Source: Patescibacteria group bacterium (GTDB lineage Bacteria; Patescibacteriota; Minisyncoccia; Portnoybacterales; GWB1-42-6). Taken from it: a DNA stretch of 38,775 nucleotides. This document shows positions 1,169 through 34,731 of this stretch, piece by piece. Below the pieces are notes generated by a model, which saw only the letters and a program-made list of their open reading frames with translations, did no database searches and was not told where the DNA came from. The first letter of the stretch is position 1, and each line of letters starts with the position of its first letter. A program made the translations under genes and the position numbers. The stretch lies in contig JAHIST010000087.1 in the NCBI GenBank assembly GCA_018818145.1, forward strand, positions 1 to 38,775, given 5' to 3'.

Positions 1169-2992
1169 ATGCTTTGGCAATTTAAACCTAATGCGCCGGA
1201 GGAATTCATCAGGCAGTTTCCTGAATATCAACCGATAGTTTTGCAGCTGCTTTACAATCGCGGCTTGAGAACGCAACAGCAAATTGATGAATTTTTCAAT
1301 CCGGATTTTGAGGGGGATCTTCTGGATCCTTTTTTGATGTTGGGTATTAGCCAAGCGGTTAAGCGAATAAATAAAGCGATAAAAAAGAAAGAAAAAATCG
1401 CTATTTTTGGCGATTACGACTGCGATGGTGTCTGCGGTGCGGTTATTTTAAAAACAATTTTGGAGGAGCTAGGAGCTGATTTGAGCGGCGGCGTTTATAT
1501 ACCCGATCGGATAATTGAAGGTTATGGCCTGAATAACGAAGCGATAGAGAAGCTGGGTAAAGAAAAAGTTAATCTGATTTTAACGGTTGATTGCGGCATT
1601 TCCGACGTGGCGGAAGTTAAGTTAGCCAATTCGCTTGGCGTAGAAGTCATTATTGTTGACCACCATCGTTTGGGCAAAAAATTACCATCAGCCAAGGTCA
1701 TAATTGACCCTTGGCAGCCAAAAGATAAGTATCCTTTTAAGGAATTAGCCGGAGCGGGCGTGGCGTTTAAATTAGCGCAAGCCCTTCGACAAGCTCAGGG
1801 TAAAGCCCTTCAAAAAAATCAGGGTAAGCCGGGTTTGGATAATAAAATTTCTGAAGGCTGGGAAAAATGGCTGCTGGATTTGGTGGCGCTGGCCACGGTG
1901 GCTGATTGCGTGCCGGTTTTGGGGGAAAACCGCACGTTGGTGCACTACGGTTTGATTGTACTGGCGCAGACAAAAAGAGTCGGTCTACAAGAGTTAATGA
2001 AAGTGGCGCGGTTAAATCCCGTTTTTGAAGCCGAAAATCTTAAGACTAATTTAGACACTTATTCTTTAGGTTTTATTTTGGCGCCGCGGCTTAACGCGGC
2101 CGGACGAATGGACCATGCCAGCTTGGCGTTTCGTTTGCTTATGACCCAAGACTATCAGGAAGCCAAAGTTCTGGCCGAAAAAATTAATGAGCAAAATCAG
2201 CAGCGGCAGAAACTAACCGATAAAATAGTGGCTGAAGTAGAAACCCGGATTAAAAATTATCAGGCAGATAAAAATCAGCCCGTTGTCGTGGAAACAGATA
2301 AAAACTGGTCGCCGGGCGTGGTCGGCTTGGTTGCCGGCAAAATTGCCGACCGTTATCACCGCCCAGTTTTTATTTTCAAGGAAGACGAAAAAGTCAGCCG
2401 CGGCTCTGCCCGCTCCATACCCACTTTTGATATTATTGAGGCCATAGGCCAGTGCAGCCAATTGCTTAAGGAATTTGGCGGGCATCCGGGCGCGGCCGGC
2501 GTATCATTAGAAAATAAAAATCTTTCCGCGTTCAAAGAAAAAATAAACCAGATTGCCAGAGAAAAATTGAAGCCCGAAGATTTAATTCCCGCCGCGCAAA
2601 TAGATTCGGAACTGGAGCCAGCGGAGGTTAATTGGGAGTTGTTTGACGAACTGGAGCATCTTGAGCCCTTTGGGCGGGGAAATGACCCGCCAGTTTTTTT
2701 GTTAAAAAATCTGGAAATCGCCAATTTGCGGGTTGTCGGCAACGGCTCAAAACATTTGAAATTGGAGTTGAAAAGTGATAAATTAGCCAATAAGGTTTTT
2801 CACGCTATTGGTTTTAATCTGGCCGCCCGCCTGTCATCGCCTGCGGCTCAGACTATTGGCGGGCAAGCCAAAAACGGTAATGACAATTTAAAAACAGGCG
2901 ATAAAATTGATATTATTTTTGAACTGATAGCGGATGAGTGGAACGGGACGAGGAATTTACAGCTGAAAATAATAGATATAAAAAAATTATGA
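1169..2992 (+). CDS. recJ: single-stranded-DNA-specific exonuclease RecJ (DHH/DHHA1)
   Basis: Motifs DYDCDGVCG, VDCG, VDHH and GGHPGAAG. ATG 1169 (MLWQFKPNAPEEF) is preferred over the TTG 1154 of the ORF track. The stop TGA overlaps the ATG at 2989 (ATGA junction). Confidence 0.9.
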   Translation: MLWQFKPNAPEEFIRQFPEYQPIVLQLLYNRGLRTQQQIDEFFNPDFEGDLLDPFLMLGISQAVKRINKAIKKKEKIAIFGDYDCDGVCGAVILKTILEELGADLSGGVYIPDRIIEGYGLNNEAIEKLGKEKVNLILTVDCGISDVAEVKLANSLGVEVIIVDHHRLGKKLPSAKVIIDPWQPKDKYPFKELAGAGVAFKLAQALRQAQGKALQKNQGKPGLDNKISEGWEKWLLDLVALATVADCVPVLGENRTLVHYGLIVLAQTKRVGLQELMKVARLNPVFEAENLKTNLDTYSLGFILAPRLNAAGRMDHASLAFRLLMTQDYQEAKVLAEKINEQNQQRQKLTDKIVAEVETRIKNYQADKNQPVVVETDKNWSPGVVGLVAGKIADRYHRPVFIFKEDEKVSRGSARSIPTFDIIEAIGQCSQLLKEFGGHPGAAGVSLENKNLSAFKEKINQIAREKLKPEDLIPAAQIDSELEPAEVNWELFDELEHLEPFGRGNDPPVFLLKNLEIANLRVVGNGSKHLKLELKSDKLANKVFHAIGFNLAARLSSPAAQTIGGQAKNGNDNLKTGDKIDIIFELIADEWNGTRNLQLKIIDIKKL

Positions 2993-7869: not shown

Positions 7870-7971
7870 CCCCGTTAGAAATTATTGAATAATTTATTTT
7901 AGTACGCTAATTTATCTTAAGAACGGAGCGCTTTTATTGGATAATAAATTACTTGATAATTTCTAACGGGG
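7870..7971. repeat. ~100-nt imperfect palindrome closed by CCCCGTTAGAAATT / AATTTCTAACGGGG
   Basis: The 14-nt ends (7870-7883 and 7958-7971) are perfect reverse complements, and the inner arms are partly complementary. It starts 2 nt after the CAP gene stop. Confidence 0.6.
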
Positions 7972-9432: not shown

Positions 9433-10069
9433 AATCAGCTTTCTAATGGGGCAAGCAAGTCTATAAGCCGAATTCTGTCCTTCGGCTCACTTCGTTTCGC
9501 CTCAGGATAAATTCCTAAAAGGGTTTACCCTGAGCTTGCAAAGCAAGCGAAGGGATAATCATCTGTCTGGGTCCCGCATTGCTGCGGGACTCAAGCGATC
9601 TACTTTTCTTATGAGATTCAAATTTTCAATCTCATAGTTTGATCTTGCACCCGGTAAGGATTTTGCCGTTTCACTCCCAAAGTTATCCTTTGGGACTCGC
9701 CCTATCTCCGTTTTTGCGGAGCGGGCGTCCCGACTTTTTCAAGTTGCGGGGCGTCTCTGTTCGCACCTCTATCCCGCCCGCTTCGCCAAGCTTTAGCGAG
9801 GCGAGTATTTGCGGGACGACGGCCGTTAGCCGCTACCTTTTTACCCCTCACTTGGATCACTGGAGATGAAATAATATATTTATTTTATTCTTGTTCATCT
9901 GCAAGGAACCAAGTGAGGGGGAGTGTTCGGACTTTCCTCCCCCCACTTGCTATTAGTCTAGTTTATATTGTTTTAAGATCAACAATATTTTTTGGAAAAA
10001 TCTTATTACTTGACTGATAGCAAGTGGGGGGCGATTACCCGACTTACTTGCCCTATTAGAAAGCTGATT
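9433..10069 (-). ncRNA. rnpB: RNase P RNA, bacterial type A, unusually long
   Basis: The minus strand carries GGAGGAAAGTCCGAAC (P4 5' strand) and ACAGAATTCGGCTTATAG (P4 3' strand), with covariation relative to E. coli. It also has GCTAACGGCC, GCGAACAGAGACG, AGTGAAACGGC, CCGGGTGCAAGATCAAA, GCTTGAG and CAGACAGATGATTATCC. The terminal 29 nt pair with each other (9433-9461 with 10041-10069). Mature ends may be internal to this extended P1. Confidence 0.9.
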
Positions 10070-26929: not shown

Positions 26930-28942
26930 ATGGAACAGCAAAAAAACATCAGAAATTTTTGTATCGTGGCGCATATTGACCATGGCAAGTCCACTTTAGC
27001 GGATCGTTTTTTGGAATTGACGCAAACAGTAGAAAAACGAAAAATGCGTGAGCAATTTCTGGACCAGATGGATTTGGAGAGGGAGCGAGGAATAACAATC
27101 AAGCTGCAGCCGGTCAGGATGGAATACGTTTTGAAAAATCCAAATAACAAAATCCAAAGTTTAAATAAATTTCAAAATCCAAATGACCAAAATGTTCCGC
27201 CCGCTTCGCCGCAGCTTCAACGAGGCGAGCAGGGCGGGACTGGATTAGAAATTAGAAATTCGGATTTAGAAATTGCAGATTCAAAATTTATTTTGAATCT
27301 GATTGATACTCCGGGGCATGTAGACTTCTCATATGAAGTATCAAGATCGCTGGCCGCGGTGGAAGGCGCGATTTTGCTGGTGGACGCGACCAAAGGAGTG
27401 CAGGCCCAAACTTTGGCTAATTTATATTTAGCCCAGCAGCAAAATTTAGTTATTATTTCGGCAATCAATAAAATTGACTTGCCGGGCGCCAGAGTTTCGG
27501 AAGTGGAAGATGAAATCAGGAATATTTTGGGCGAAAAAGGCGCGGCTACGGAAATTTTTAAAATTTCCGCCAAAGAAGGCACAGATGTTGAAAAATTATT
27601 GCAGGCGGTAATAACTCAAGTTCCGTTGCCCGAAGGCGATGCGCAAAAACCCTTGCGCGCTTTGGTTTTTGATTCTGCTTACGATTCTTACAAGGGCGTA
27701 ATTGCCTATGTGCGGTTAATAGACGGAGAGATAAAGCGGGAAGACAAAATTATTTTTATGGCTTCAAAAGCCCGTGCTGAAGCGCTTGAGGTAGGAGTTT
27801 TTAAGCCCGATTTGCGTCCGGTTCAAAAATTGTCGGCCGGTGAGATCGGCTATATTGCCACCGGCCTGAAAGACGTGGCGCTTTGTCGCGTAGGCGACAC
27901 TATAACTATATCAAATATCAAAAATCCCCGGCCTCGCCCGGGCTTGGCCGAGGGCGGGCAAAGATCAAATATTTCAGAGGTTAAACCATTATCAGGATAC
28001 CGTGAACCCAGGCCTATGATTTTTGCCAGTTTTTACACGGCTTCCGGGTCGGAGCGGGAAAATCAAGACTTTAATTTATTGCGCGACGCGCTGTCAAAAT
28101 TAAAATTAAGCGACGCTTCGCTGGTTTTTGAACCGGAAGCGTCGGAAGCCTTGGGCCGCGGCTTTAAATGCGGATTTTTGGGCATGCTGCATTTGGAAAT
28201 TGTCAGCGAAAGATTGCGGCGCGAATACGGTTTAAAATTGATTATTACCACGCCAAGCGTGGTTTATCAGCTCAAGGAAAAAAACAATCCCGAACAAAAA
28301 TTAATTTACTCGCCCCAGCATTTGCCCGACGCCAGTTGCACAGAAGAGATTAAGGAGCCCTGGATTAAGTTGGAAATTATCAGTCCCAACGAATATCTGG
28401 GAACAGTGATGAAGTTGCTACAGGGATTGGGTGGAATTTACGCCAACACCCAATATCTGGGCGCGCAGAGAGTCATAATCAGCTATGAAGCGCCGCTGCG
28501 AGAAATTATTGTTGATTTTTACGATAAATTAAAAGGCGCTACTTCCGGTTACGCCTCTATGAGCTATGAATTAATTGAATGGCGGGCGGGAGATTTGGTT
28601 TGTCTGGACATCCTTGTGGCCGGTGAAAAAGTAGAGGCATTTTCGCGGATTGTTCCGCGCGCCAAAGCATTGTCGGAAGGCCGGGCGATCGTGGAAAGAT
28701 TAAAAGATGTTTTGCCGGCCCAGCTTTTCACGGTCGCTTTGCAGGCGGCTGTAGGCGGCAAAATCCTGGCGCGCGAAACGATTAGGGCGCGCCGCAAAGA
28801 CGTGACCGGCTATTTATACGGCGGCGATGTAACGCGAAAGCGTAAATTATTAGAAAAGCAGAAAAAAGGCAAAAAGAAAATGCTGTCGCGCGGCCGCGTC
28901 AACATCCCGCAGGATGTGTTTTTGAAGGTATTAAAGAAGTAA
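26930..28942 (+). CDS. lepA: Translation elongation factor 4 (LepA)
   Basis: Motifs IRNFCIVAHIDHGKSTLADR, DTPGHVDF, NKIDL and the LepA_C tail GGDVTRKRKLLEKQKKGKKKM. ATG 26930 (MEQQKNIRNF) is preferred over TTG 26909. Confidence 0.95.
   Translation: MEQQKNIRNFCIVAHIDHGKSTLADRFLELTQTVEKRKMREQFLDQMDLERERGITIKLQPVRMEYVLKNPNNKIQSLNKFQNPNDQNVPPASPQLQRGEQGGTGLEIRNSDLEIADSKFILNLIDTPGHVDFSYEVSRSLAAVEGAILLVDATKGVQAQTLANLYLAQQQNLVIISAINKIDLPGARVSEVEDEIRNILGEKGAATEIFKISAKEGTDVEKLLQAVITQVPLPEGDAQKPLRALVFDSAYDSYKGVIAYVRLIDGEIKREDKIIFMASKARAEALEVGVFKPDLRPVQKLSAGEIGYIATGLKDVALCRVGDTITISNIKNPRPRPGLAEGGQRSNISEVKPLSGYREPRPMIFASFYTASGSERENQDFNLLRDALSKLKLSDASLVFEPEASEALGRGFKCGFLGMLHLEIVSERLRREYGLKLIITTPSVVYQLKEKNNPEQKLIYSPQHLPDASCTEEIKEPWIKLEIISPNEYLGTVMKLLQGLGGIYANTQYLGAQRVIISYEAPLREIIVDFYDKLKGATSGYASMSYELIEWRAGDLVCLDILVAGEKVEAFSRIVPRAKALSEGRAIVERLKDVLPAQLFTVALQAAVGGKILARETIRARRKDVTGYLYGGDVTRKRKLLEKQKKGKKKMLSRGRVNIPQDVFLKVLKK
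27137..27280. repeat. Composite dispersed-repeat insertion, in frame, between switch I and the DTPGH motif of lepA
   Basis: It has three parts. AAATCCAAATGACCAAAA is about 18/20 identical to 1089-1108. The GC hairpin CCGCCCGCTTCGCC...CGAGGCGAG...GCGGGAC (27197-27240) is about 85% identical to 9773-9817. GGATTAGAAATTAGAAATTCGGATTTAGAAATT is nearly identical to 33675-33707. Confidence 0.75.
27910..27972. repeat. Second in-frame lepA insertion (54-nt period) flanked by a 9-bp direct repeat ATCAAATAT
   Basis: ATCAAATAT occurs at 27910-27918 and 27964-27972. The GC-rich core is CCCCGGCCTCGCCCGGGCTTGGCCGAGGGCGGGC. Removing the 18 aa restores colinearity with E. coli LepA ([23 protein letters not shown], from memory). 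Confidence 0.65.
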
Positions 28943-29551: not shown

Positions 29552-29634
29552 TTTCCCCTCTTTTGTAAAGAGGGGTTAGGGGAGATTTAGATTTTTATAA
29601 AATCCACCCCAACCCTCCTTTAAAAAGGAGGGAG
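29552..29634. repeat. Double-hairpin repeat, copy A (immediately after a stop codon, upstream of tRNA-Gly)
   Basis: TTTCCCCTCTTTTGTAAAGAGGGGTTAGGGGAGATTT...CCCTCCTTTAAAAAGGAGGGAG aligns along its length with 31101-31180. Confidence 0.7.
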
Positions 29635-31100: not shown

Positions 31101-31180
31101 TTTCCCCTCCTTTAGGAGGGGCGAGGGGAGATTTTAAAACTATTAAAATCCTCCCTATCCCTCCTTTAAAAAGGAGGGAG
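31101..31180. repeat. Double-hairpin repeat, copy B (immediately after the aspS stop, upstream of tRNA-Thr)
   Basis: TTTCCCCTCCTTTAGGAGGGGCGAGGGGAGATTTT...CCCTCCTTTAAAAAGGAGGGAG, the same family as 29552-29634. Confidence 0.7.
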
Positions 31181-33598: not shown

Positions 33599-33707
33599 CC
33601 GCCTGCTCGCCTCGCTGCCGCCTTTTGCGAGCCTCGCCTCTGGCGGGAAGCTACGGCGAAGCGGGCGGCGGCATGGTTTAGAAATTAGAAATTAGGATTT
33701 AGAAATT
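33599..33707. repeat. Intergenic composite repeat: GC hairpin family plus the TTAGAAATTAGAAATT word run
   Basis: CCGCCTGCTCGCCTCG...GGCGAAGCGGGCGG is the reverse-complement relative of 27197-27240 and 9773-9817. It is followed by GGTTTAGAAATTAGAAATTAGGATTTAGAAATT. Confidence 0.7.
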
Positions 33708-34687: not shown

Positions 34688-34731
34688 CCCCGTATCTGTC
34701 ATTCCCGCGAAAGCGGGAATCCAGTACGGGG
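34688..34731. repeat. Nested hairpin repeat (CCCCGTATCTG ... ATTCCCGC gaaa GCGGGAAT ... CAGTACGGGG)
   Basis: The inner 8-bp stem has a GAAA loop. The outer ~10-bp stem has one bulge. GTCATTCCC and GCGGGAATCC are each repeated nearby. Confidence 0.6.

Follow-up and report, generated by a model that had tools for sequence, protein, structure and literature searches.

The Rickettsia palindromic elements (RPEs) lie in frame within protein genes and also in transfer-messenger RNA (tmRNA) and M1 RNA, according to passages of two papers that treat them (Ogata 2000, 2002 via PMC2229807; PMC1779305). The same passages describe the inserts as apparently neutral or slightly harmful and give no transposase as known for them (PMC2229807, PMC1779305). 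A comparable repeat occurs in the 38,775-nt stretch of Patescibacteria DNA analysed here (assembly GCA_018818145.1, contig JAHIST010000087.1, positions 1 to 38,775), which we call the window. It is a 30-nt palindromic unit present in rnpB, the gene for RNase P RNA, in lepA, the gene for EF4, and in an intergenic spacer. Like the RPEs, the unit is palindromic and non-coding, is found between genes as well as in frame in conserved proteins and in RNase P RNA, and belongs to small genomes. By description the two can be set apart, since RPEs are 100-150 bp long and confined to Rickettsiales, whereas the unit has 30 nt, is nested in other hairpins and crosses several phyla. RPEs also form a long stem-loop with terminal inverted repeats, and only layered composites around the unit reach a comparable size (about 140 nt). 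The RPE habit of insertion is seen in the source genome in LepA, MiaA, an RluD-like synthase, a divergent copy in MnmA and hairpin P9 of rnpB. The feature is ordinary in kind, with RPEs as its closest precedent, and it is a clear and useful example. A first-pass annotation of the window had called such landing sites unusual; that view has to be given up, because RPEs had already been reported in protein genes, tmRNA and M1 RNA (Ogata 2002, in a passage of PMC2229807).

A second relevant class is that of the CGTC-tagged repetitive extragenic palindromes (REPs). These have a CGTC (or TGTC/CCTC) tag, an 8-9-bp stem that starts with AT, a 4-5-nt loop and a CCA tail; they also occur inside genes and in several phyla, have no dedicated transposase and do not flank a Y1 gene (PMC3733652). 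RPE-4 and RPE-6 have been equated with REPs of this type, and Patescibacteria are not among the phyla reported (PMC3733652). A hairpin that hosts the unit in the source genome, (C/T)GTC-ATTCCCGC-GAAA-GCGGGAAT-CCA, has the tag, an 8-bp stem starting with AT, a 4-nt loop and the CCA tail. The unit itself has neither a CGTC nor a GTAG tag, carries a conserved 10-nt loop and is a guest in the loops of such REPs, although it shares with them the lack of a dedicated adjacent transposase. Because the host hairpin TGTCATTCCCGCGAAAGCGGGAATCCAG agrees with the CGTC REP definition and the unit does not, the host is a member of this class and its guest is not. A full-text literature search found no paper that joins palindromic elements with Patescibacteria. 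New here are the occurrence in rnpB, with empty-site controls, the exact definition of the unit at 30 nt and its presence in cultured Chelativorans.

The window is contig C37 of a genome (G000) of 866 kb in 99 contigs, with 42% G+C and 95% completeness; other G numbers below denote other genomes compared, C numbers contigs of G000, and L numbers loci. Copies aligned from 18 of the 59 genomes in an order-level survey define the unit as CCCGCTTCGCC-RRAGCTYCAG-CGAGGCGAG, an imperfect 30-nt palindrome centred on AGCT. Its length in the order is exactly 30 nt in 28 of 33 copies and 29 nt in the other five, and G051 has a head-to-tail tandem copy (2x30). The stem comprises ten positions, including one fixed C.A mismatch and one T.G pair, and the two strands of the unit can therefore be distinguished. 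In a position-conservation profile of 103 copies, conservation around the unit ends at -3 (R) and +29 (Y), two bases that mostly pair with each other; the first of them is G or A in 99 copies. Conservation across phyla extends to both the stems and the loop core (A-G-C-T..A-G). GTAG is seen solely as one loop variant (GTAGCTTTAG), and the flanks are R...Y.

Scanning G000 for the two halves of the unit (CGCTTCGCC-N3-60-CGAGGCGAG, at most one mismatch per half) gave 20 matches, compared with 0-1 in ten shuffles, and about 13 of the 20 are true family members. The exact unit pattern is present in 18 of the 59 order genomes, with 1 to 8 copies each, and missing from the remaining 41. Overall, the 30-mer was found at hundreds of places. 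The control, which was the same pattern read backwards, had no match in any of the order genomes or the other genomes checked.

Three copies lie in the window. By direct check, the sequences are found where the first-pass annotation placed them, and the four blocks it aligned between rnpB and lepA are identical. Its three locations for a hairpin repeat of about 45 nt stand as well, but its size does not, since the unit spans 29-30 nt and the outer GCGGGAC block belongs to the host stem. The first copy (9777-9805, plus strand) is the 29-nt variant CCCGCTTCGCC-AAGCTTTAG-CGAGGCGAG, and the rnpB RNA bears its complement. The second (27200-27229, plus strand) has 30 nt and lies in lepA, where it is stop-free and, as had been claimed, in frame, and reads PASPQLQRGE. 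The third (33606-33665, minus strand) is intergenic and accounts for the longer reverse-complement relative that had been reported at 33599-33668; it is the same unit, lengthened by a second 30-nt module (33617-33646, CCGCCAGAGGCGAGGCTCGCAAAAGGCGGC) that splits its loop. The region of this split copy is 98% identical over 64 nt to C84:11033-11096, and the inner module also stands alone at C49:9531, C49:8980, C1:1177 and C13:17835. The repeat is likely to be one copy of a palindromic insertion module that is very small (30 nt), non-coding and of a selfish type. The earlier suggestion of a dispersed element that lands in rnpB, protein genes and spacers and is tolerated there is upheld by further copies and by empty counterparts for all three kinds of site.

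The rnpB gene (9448-10050, minus strand) encodes a type-A RNase P RNA of 603 nt (Rfam RF00010, 85 bits, E = 3e-26, model positions 1-367). At the Rfam gathering threshold (score 100) no rnpB is found in the window; its score falls below the threshold because of large inserts, and a permissive search recovers it. The type-A core is present (P4 strands, J11/12, P15 and the GGAAAGUCCG / ACAGAAUUCGGCUUA core). The gene is single copy in the assembly, and the rnpA protein gene is on contig C18. The excess length comes from inserts in P3 (93 nt), J5/7 (77 nt), J2/4 (P19-like, 75 nt) and P9. A manual helix map places the extended P9 hairpin (9771-9817, minus strand) between P8 (GCGGCUAACGGCCGU) and GAGGUGCGAACAGAGA (J11/12). 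This hairpin combines a native stem, GUCCCG/CGGGAU, with a loop remnant and the unit, and it folds at -24 kcal/mol (z = -3.3) into a long, nearly perfect helix. The P9 of family relatives has 12-13 nt and a GNRA loop, as in CAUC-GUAA-GAUG or CGCC-GCGA-GGCG, and that of G013 is GUCCCGC-AUUUU-GCGGGAC. In-silico removal of the 29 nt from the G000 sequence leaves GUCCCG-CAAAUA-CGGGAUA, an ordinary P9 for the group. The GNRA loop is missing in G000; in type-A RNase P RNAs this loop reportedly makes a stabilizing tertiary contact with P1. The copy lengthens a peripheral helix, and its position there suggests that it is tolerated.

A conserved native helix was a counter-explanation that the first-pass annotation itself had raised. 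In the form considered here, the rnpB segment would be the lineage's own P9 and would resemble the repeat only by chance and by a G+C-rich composition. This applies to the outer stem, because relatives without the unit have GUCCCG...CGGGAUA. Six of 30 metagenome relatives selected for a P9 of 17-47 nt share a stem of this type, and P18 likewise reads GUCCCGC...GCGGGAC and is conserved in relatives, so P18 was rejected as another copy of the repeat. It does not apply to the inner 29 nt, which are the guest. No relative examined, whether among the family relatives or the 30 metagenome relatives, has the unit in its rnpB. The 29 nt match the 30-mer found at hundreds of places with no control match, and an identical 29-mer occurs outside rnpB in G024, a member of a different family of the same order. 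For the inner segment, a native helix or a chance resemblance is scarcely credible. Among about 110 unit copies sampled from many genomes, the one in G000 is the sole copy in an rnpB. A metagenome search with the exact flanks of the G000 P9 had no match, and the metagenome relatives were obtained with a looser, family-level pattern.

In lepA (26930-28942, plus strand) the encoded protein has 670 residues, compared with about 596-600 in uninserted relatives, and matches solved EF4 structures with E = 1e-182. An alignment of 30 LepA sequences delimits a first insert of 46 codons (27143-27280, plus strand) in a G-domain loop between VRMEY and FILNLIDTPGH. In the solved structures this insert maps to the tip of the hairpin that follows switch I (residues 72-75 of the T. 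thermophilus protein), and the unit supplies ten of its codons. The loop between VRMxY and LNLIDTPGH has 6-11 residues in 17 of 29 relatives and 14 to 57 in the other 12. Most of these long loops are built from other hairpin families, such as CGTC REPs (LDSRFRGND) or the GTCATCCTGA type; G013 has the same unit in the same loop and the same frame (PASPELQRGE). Across the order, inserts appear to have landed in LepA repeatedly. Both the P9 hairpin and this loop lie away from the catalytic cores, so the copies are better seen as tolerated passengers than as functional parts.

The first LepA insert is layered, with the unit at its centre, a GTTCCG/GGGCGGGAC shell, A+T-rich arms and a palindrome at the edge. 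The shell hairpin, GTTCCG...CAGGGCGGGAC (27194-27240, plus strand), is an inverted repeat that folds at -29.2 kcal/mol. The arms (27168-27274, plus strand) pair between 27168-27184 and 27258-27274 (17 nt, 88%), and the right one is a TTAGAAA heptamer repeat. A second heptamer arm at 33674-33707 (plus strand) is 94% identical to 27241-27274. The edge palindrome, CAGATTCAAAAT-TT-ATTTTGAATCTG (27276-27301, plus strand), is a perfect 12+12 inverted repeat. The right half consists of the conserved host codons I-L-N-L, which the left half (read as DSK) mirrors.

Further in-frame copies in G000 occur in MiaA and in an RluD-like pseudouridine synthase, and a divergent copy occurs in MnmA; the domains recognized in these host proteins are IPPT, PseudoU_synth_2 and tRNA_Me_trans, respectively. 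Gene context was analysed for 110 copies from all sources, covering several phyla, with random positions drawn in the same loci. Long open frames contain 38% of the copies and 69% of the random positions, which is a depletion of about twofold in coding DNA. The coding copies use all six reading frames (9, 8, 4, 8, 7 and 6). Together, six-frame use and coding depletion indicate that the unit behaves as a selfish sequence at the DNA level. From these patterns it appears to be selected against in genes and, where it is kept, to be translated without a preferred peptide. Copies can persist inside genes because 30 nt amount to ten codons and are stop-free in most frames.

The same statistics bear on whether the insert might be removed from RNA as an intervening sequence, either by splicing or by RNase III cleavage of the long P9 stem, as in rRNA, which would leave the mature RNase P RNA fragmented or shortened. 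In favour of this, the helix of the extended P9 is long and almost perfect, and Patescibacteria are said to carry insertions in their rRNA genes. However, in protein genes the unit is 30 nt long and open, and its flanks are continuous in frame. Contexts resembling split genes make up 3 of the 110 copies against 4.7% of random positions, and the 29-nt variant is non-coding in seven of its eight copies, as is predicted if the unit is translated through; removal from RNA would not call for such a pattern. A 30-nt sequence also has no intron-like core, and RNA removal is accordingly a very improbable explanation.

Empty and filled sites define where the unit lies. It is usually found directly 3' of CCCG or CCGG, at the loop base of a pre-existing hairpin, and its flanks pair with each other at -7.4 kcal/mol, compared with -5.6 +/- 0.5 for permuted flanks. 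The commonest host hairpin in G000 is the CGTC-type REP TGTC-ATTCCCGC-GAAA-GCGGGAAT-CCAG. Eight copies of this REP (TTCCCGCGAAAGCGGGAA) are empty and one is filled with exactly 30 nt after CCCG, within the MiaA frame. One of the empty type lies in the window (34697-34724, plus strand; TGTCA-TTCCCGC-GAAA-GCGGGAA-TCCAG) and fits the published definition (PMC3733652). The second host combines a TTAGAAA-heptamer arm with a GTCCCGC hairpin, and is empty at C42:4032 and filled at C84:11033 and at window position 33599. In lepA the same arm-and-shell composite is filled with the unit in the opposite orientation, which argues for separate insertion events. Repeated insertions of this kind build nested hairpin layers.

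The third kind of host comes from Chelativorans, two cultured species of which carry the unit within a larger nested palindrome, CGTCATCCCGG...GTCCGGGACCCATT...TTCCGG|unit|AATGGGTCCCGGAC...CCGGGATGACG. The host palindrome of C. xinjiangense (GGGACCCATT...TTCCGG^AATGGGTCCC) is empty at 42 sites and filled at about 24; the inner host palindrome of C. alearense is empty at 18 and filled at 5. Empty and filled palindromes show the same host-loop variants and differ by exactly 30 nt. None of the three kinds of empty/filled pair (CGTC REP, TTAGAAA-arm host and Chelativorans palindrome) shows a target duplication. On a larger scale, the whole composite of about 165 nt (CGTCATCCCGG...CCGGGATGACG arms) occupies two intergenic positions in C. 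xinjiangense and is absent from the orthologous sites of C. alearense. There the flanks are 93-96% identical, and the composite differs as a whole together with extra spacer, with no clean junction at the level of the unit (L245-L260, L266-L277). This composite is a recently active repeat in cultured bacteria.

In a pattern scan of one genome per species, hosts among the matches listed include many Patescibacteria classes, metagenome-assembled genomes (MAGs) of WOR-3, Omnitrophota and Lentimicrobiaceae, low-G+C MAGs labelled Gammaproteobacteria, a Bdellovibrionales MAG and the two Chelativorans species. The loop consensus is the same across phyla among these matches. Five genomes checked outside the candidate phyla radiation (CPR) have 5 to 29 copies each, and copy numbers reach 29 in a WOR-3 MAG, 25 in C. 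xinjiangense, 24 in a Lentimicrobiaceae MAG and 13 in a 1-Mb MAG, with none in the control.

Such conservation raises the question of function. The unit might be kept by selection at each site, for example as an AGCT-centred site for protein binding or DNA modification or as a hairpin that stabilizes or terminates transcripts, and might be adaptive in rnpB and lepA. The conserved stems and loop core, the enrichment of copies outside genes and the view that many REP-type repeats are RNA elements (PMC3733652) would agree with this. On the other hand, related genomes differ in copy number over the range 0 to 29, and the unit is missing from 41 of the 59 order genomes. It is read in six frames within unrelated proteins, it is absent from every relative's rnpB examined and from the LepA loop of most relatives, and paralogous host hairpins are found both filled and empty. 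We therefore consider a site-by-site function improbable.

Some features of the host sites can be read without any transposition. If a stalled DNA end annealed through a shared stem (CCCG...CGGG), copied the interior of another hairpin and returned, then the unit would spread by gene conversion or template switching only among hairpins with a common stem, and mirror-image copying of adjacent sequence would extend the outer stems. About a third of the copies in the order do sit in CCCG|unit|CG..GCGGG shells, and the first four bases of the unit repeat the target CCCG. The perfect palindrome at the edge of the lepA insert mirrors host codons, GCTTGCTTTGCAAGC occurs inside the P19-like copy in rnpB, no link to a transposase is seen, and template switches are documented as a source of RNA hairpins (Monttinen and Loytynoja 2022, PMC8794818). 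The 38.8-kb window has just three tight inverted repeats of at least 11 nt that are perfect (0-1 in shuffles), and this rarity suggests template-switch copying as the source of locus-specific outer stems. It would explain the mirror stems of individual loci, such as the 12+12 palindrome of lepA and the extended helices of rnpB. Template switching is a local process, however, and does not explain one 30-mer across loci and phyla. Many copies have no shell or flanking homology, including those in G013 lepA (...TTATCG|unit|CATATAG) and at L078, L079, L101 and L105. The Chelativorans flanks, TTCCGG|AATGGG, are unlike the CPR shells although the 30-mer is the same, and its identity across phyla demands a vehicle for transfer in any case. 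Conversion between hairpins might account for some of the pattern, though not for the shell-less copies, and as the route by which the unit spread we regard it as unlikely.

The preferred reading, insertion of a selfish-type module, would proceed as follows. The unit would insert cleanly, as 30 nt without target duplication, at the loop base of an existing hairpin, with CGTC-type REPs, GTCCCGC hairpins and the native P9 of RNase P RNA as hosts. It would move as DNA through an enzyme acting in trans, for which our leading guess is a hairpin-recognizing single-strand DNA nuclease or transposase other than a neighbouring REP-associated tyrosine transposase (RAYT). Template-switch copying would then probably add the locus-specific outer stems. 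Copies within genes would survive in permissive surface loops and be transcribed and translated with their hosts. The clean 30-nt difference, the lack of duplication, the preference for CCSG and the mismatches that set the strands apart are reminiscent of Y1 (HUH) enzymes and their single-strand hairpin transposition. In its strongest form this proposal makes the 30-nt palindrome a self-contained mobile module, among the smallest known and nearly letter-perfect across Patescibacteria, WOR-3, Bacteroidota and Chelativorans (Alphaproteobacteria), with precise integration and excision at hairpin-loop bases, no target duplication and a trans-acting enzyme that is not a neighbouring RAYT. We offer this form tentatively, as a possibility that is still somewhat doubtful.

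Several observations weigh against mobility of this sort. No mobilizing enzyme was identified, and G000 has neither a Y1 transposase (PF01797) nor TnpB. Y1 genes are present in 12 of the 18 order genomes with the unit and in 22 of the 41 without it, and of 32 Y1 loci in relatives and other hosts just one lies within 1.5 kb of a unit, roughly as often as chance would give. In C. xinjiangense the single Y1 match is a short fragment next to a peptidase gene, and C. alearense has no Y1. No two G000 copies share an identical loop, and therefore no recent activity is seen in this genome. Because the composite differs between the sister species, some of the change in copy number in Chelativorans reflects movement of the composite and not of the unit. 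Target specificity is loose, since only about half of the 103 profiled copies follow directly on CCCG or CCGG. That the unit is retained in the mature RNase P RNA and in the lepA mRNA is something we infer, and the strong cross-phylum conservation of the loop with its AGCT core would also fit a sequence-specific function.

Mobilization by a Y1 or RAYT enzyme was considered as a specific candidate and finds no support in the gene content of G000, in co-occurrence among the 59 genomes or in adjacency at the 32 Y1 loci; G005 has eight copies of the unit and no Y1. Plasmids and phages of cultured hosts gave only partial matches to the unit, of the kind expected by chance in G+C-rich genomes, and no parent insertion sequence (IS) was found. 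Two reverse-transcriptase genes (RVT_1) were observed in G000, at C50:1973-2302 and C47:759-1478.

Comparison with other described repeats narrows the class. The unit resembles REPs, REPINs and the palindrome-associated IS200/IS605 elements in its imperfect hairpin, strand-defining mismatches, lack of target duplication, clean empty sites and short preferred neighbour sequence. It differs from REP/REPIN-RAYT systems in lacking a GTAG tag and a flanking RAYT (1 of 32 Y1 loci, as by chance), and G000, G005 and C. alearense have no Y1 at all. IS200/IS605-type elements insert 3' of a fixed tetra- or pentanucleotide without target duplication; for the unit, three kinds of empty/filled pair show no duplication, and the left flank is a preference (CCCG or CCGG in roughly half the copies) and not a fixed sequence. 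Unlike miniature inverted-repeat transposable elements (MITEs), it has no target-site duplication and no parent IS that could be found. Heterocyst-forming cyanobacteria are said to contain hairpin units of 21-27 nt (small dispersed repeats, SDR1-8) that look mobile and are embedded in HIP1, heptamer repeats and mini-transposons. The unit is similar to these in being about 30 nt long, hairpin-forming, nested in other repeats and present or absent at comparable sites. Compared by description, it differs in sequence and host phylum, in crossing phyla, and in the translation of its TTAGAAA arms in lepA; a passage in PMC5861425 gives SDRs as reported only in Nostocaceae. Because the unit lacks the length of an RPE, the GTAG and CGTC tags, a flanking RAYT, and the terminal inverted repeats with target duplication of a MITE, it is best assigned to the broad kind of small palindromic selfish repeats and to no named family.

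These results bear on how small palindromic repeats without a transposase spread, a question that dates from the descriptions of RPEs and CGTC REPs. With its roughly 24 filled and 42 empty sites, the cultured, non-pathogenic C. xinjiangense brings this question within reach of bench experiments. In Patescibacteria, layered selfish DNA, and not lineage-specific function, accounts for part of the unusual length of RNase P RNA and of housekeeping proteins. For annotation, this matters in that the Rfam gathering score misses the rnpB of G000, and also for the reading of insertions in CPR proteins. If the unit is indeed such a mobile module, its insertion would be one way in which orphan REP-like repeats (CGTC REPs and RPEs, for example) gain their successive layers and in which the peripheral helices of ribozymes and the loops of essential proteins grow.

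Other repeat families occur in the same genes. A second lepA insert (27910-27972, plus strand) is placed by the solved EF4 structures in a domain-II loop. It contains a 45-nt hairpin (ATCCCCGGCCTCGCC...GGGCGGGCAAAGAT) from a family other than that of the unit, flanked on both sides by the 9-bp direct repeat ATCAAATAT; in contrast to the 30-nt unit, this insert has the look of one that duplicated its target. A hairpin of this second family also fills the first LepA loop of G005. The LepA proteins of G014 (L050, 746 residues) and G017 (L058, 699 residues) have extra hairpin-derived inserts at other loops, such as PLPPLNLRGGE...

A second motif, which had been described as shared between the P19-like insert of rnpB and recJ, holds as an exact 15-nt match (CAAGCTCAGGGTAAA). 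It represents a separate repeat family (CCCTTCGACAAGCTCAGGGTAA), however, and the rnpB copy is partial and interrupted; it lies in the insert in J2/4 (9478-9552, minus strand), a site where relatives have different hairpins or none. The recJ copy (1781-1828, plus strand) is in frame (ALRQAQGK...) at the end of the DHH domain and is followed by a half-copy. At least seven copies of this family are present in G000, several of them inside open frames.

Within rnpB, P3 (9939-10031) and the J5/7 hairpin (9844-9920) have a common stem, CCCC(C/U)CACUUG, and A+T-rich interiors. The same 11-bp stem forms a small hairpin at C40:320 that adjoins a copy of the unit. Three loci are too few to call this stem a repeat family.

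The commonest repeated word of G000, CCCCGTTAGA/TCTAACGGGG, has about 65 or more occurrences (for example, at 7870-7971 of the window) and forms intergenic terminator-like hairpins such as CCCCGTTAGAAATT...AATTTCTAACGGGG. Two 65-nt repeats in the window, at 29570-29634 and 31116-31180, are 82% identical (GAGGGG..AGGGGAGATTT...CCCTCCTTTAAAAAGGAGGGAG), and each immediately precedes a tRNA gene. At C81:11267 and C76:1486, hairpins of this type enclose a copy of the unit. Other G+C-rich hairpin modules lie in frame in genes whose identities are guessed from sequence: C49:8641-9678 (prepilin-peptidase-like, with two inserts), C1:1059-2270 (glycosyltransferase-like), C48:11157-12485 (MiaB-like) and C84:29330-30361 (sugar-kinase-like).

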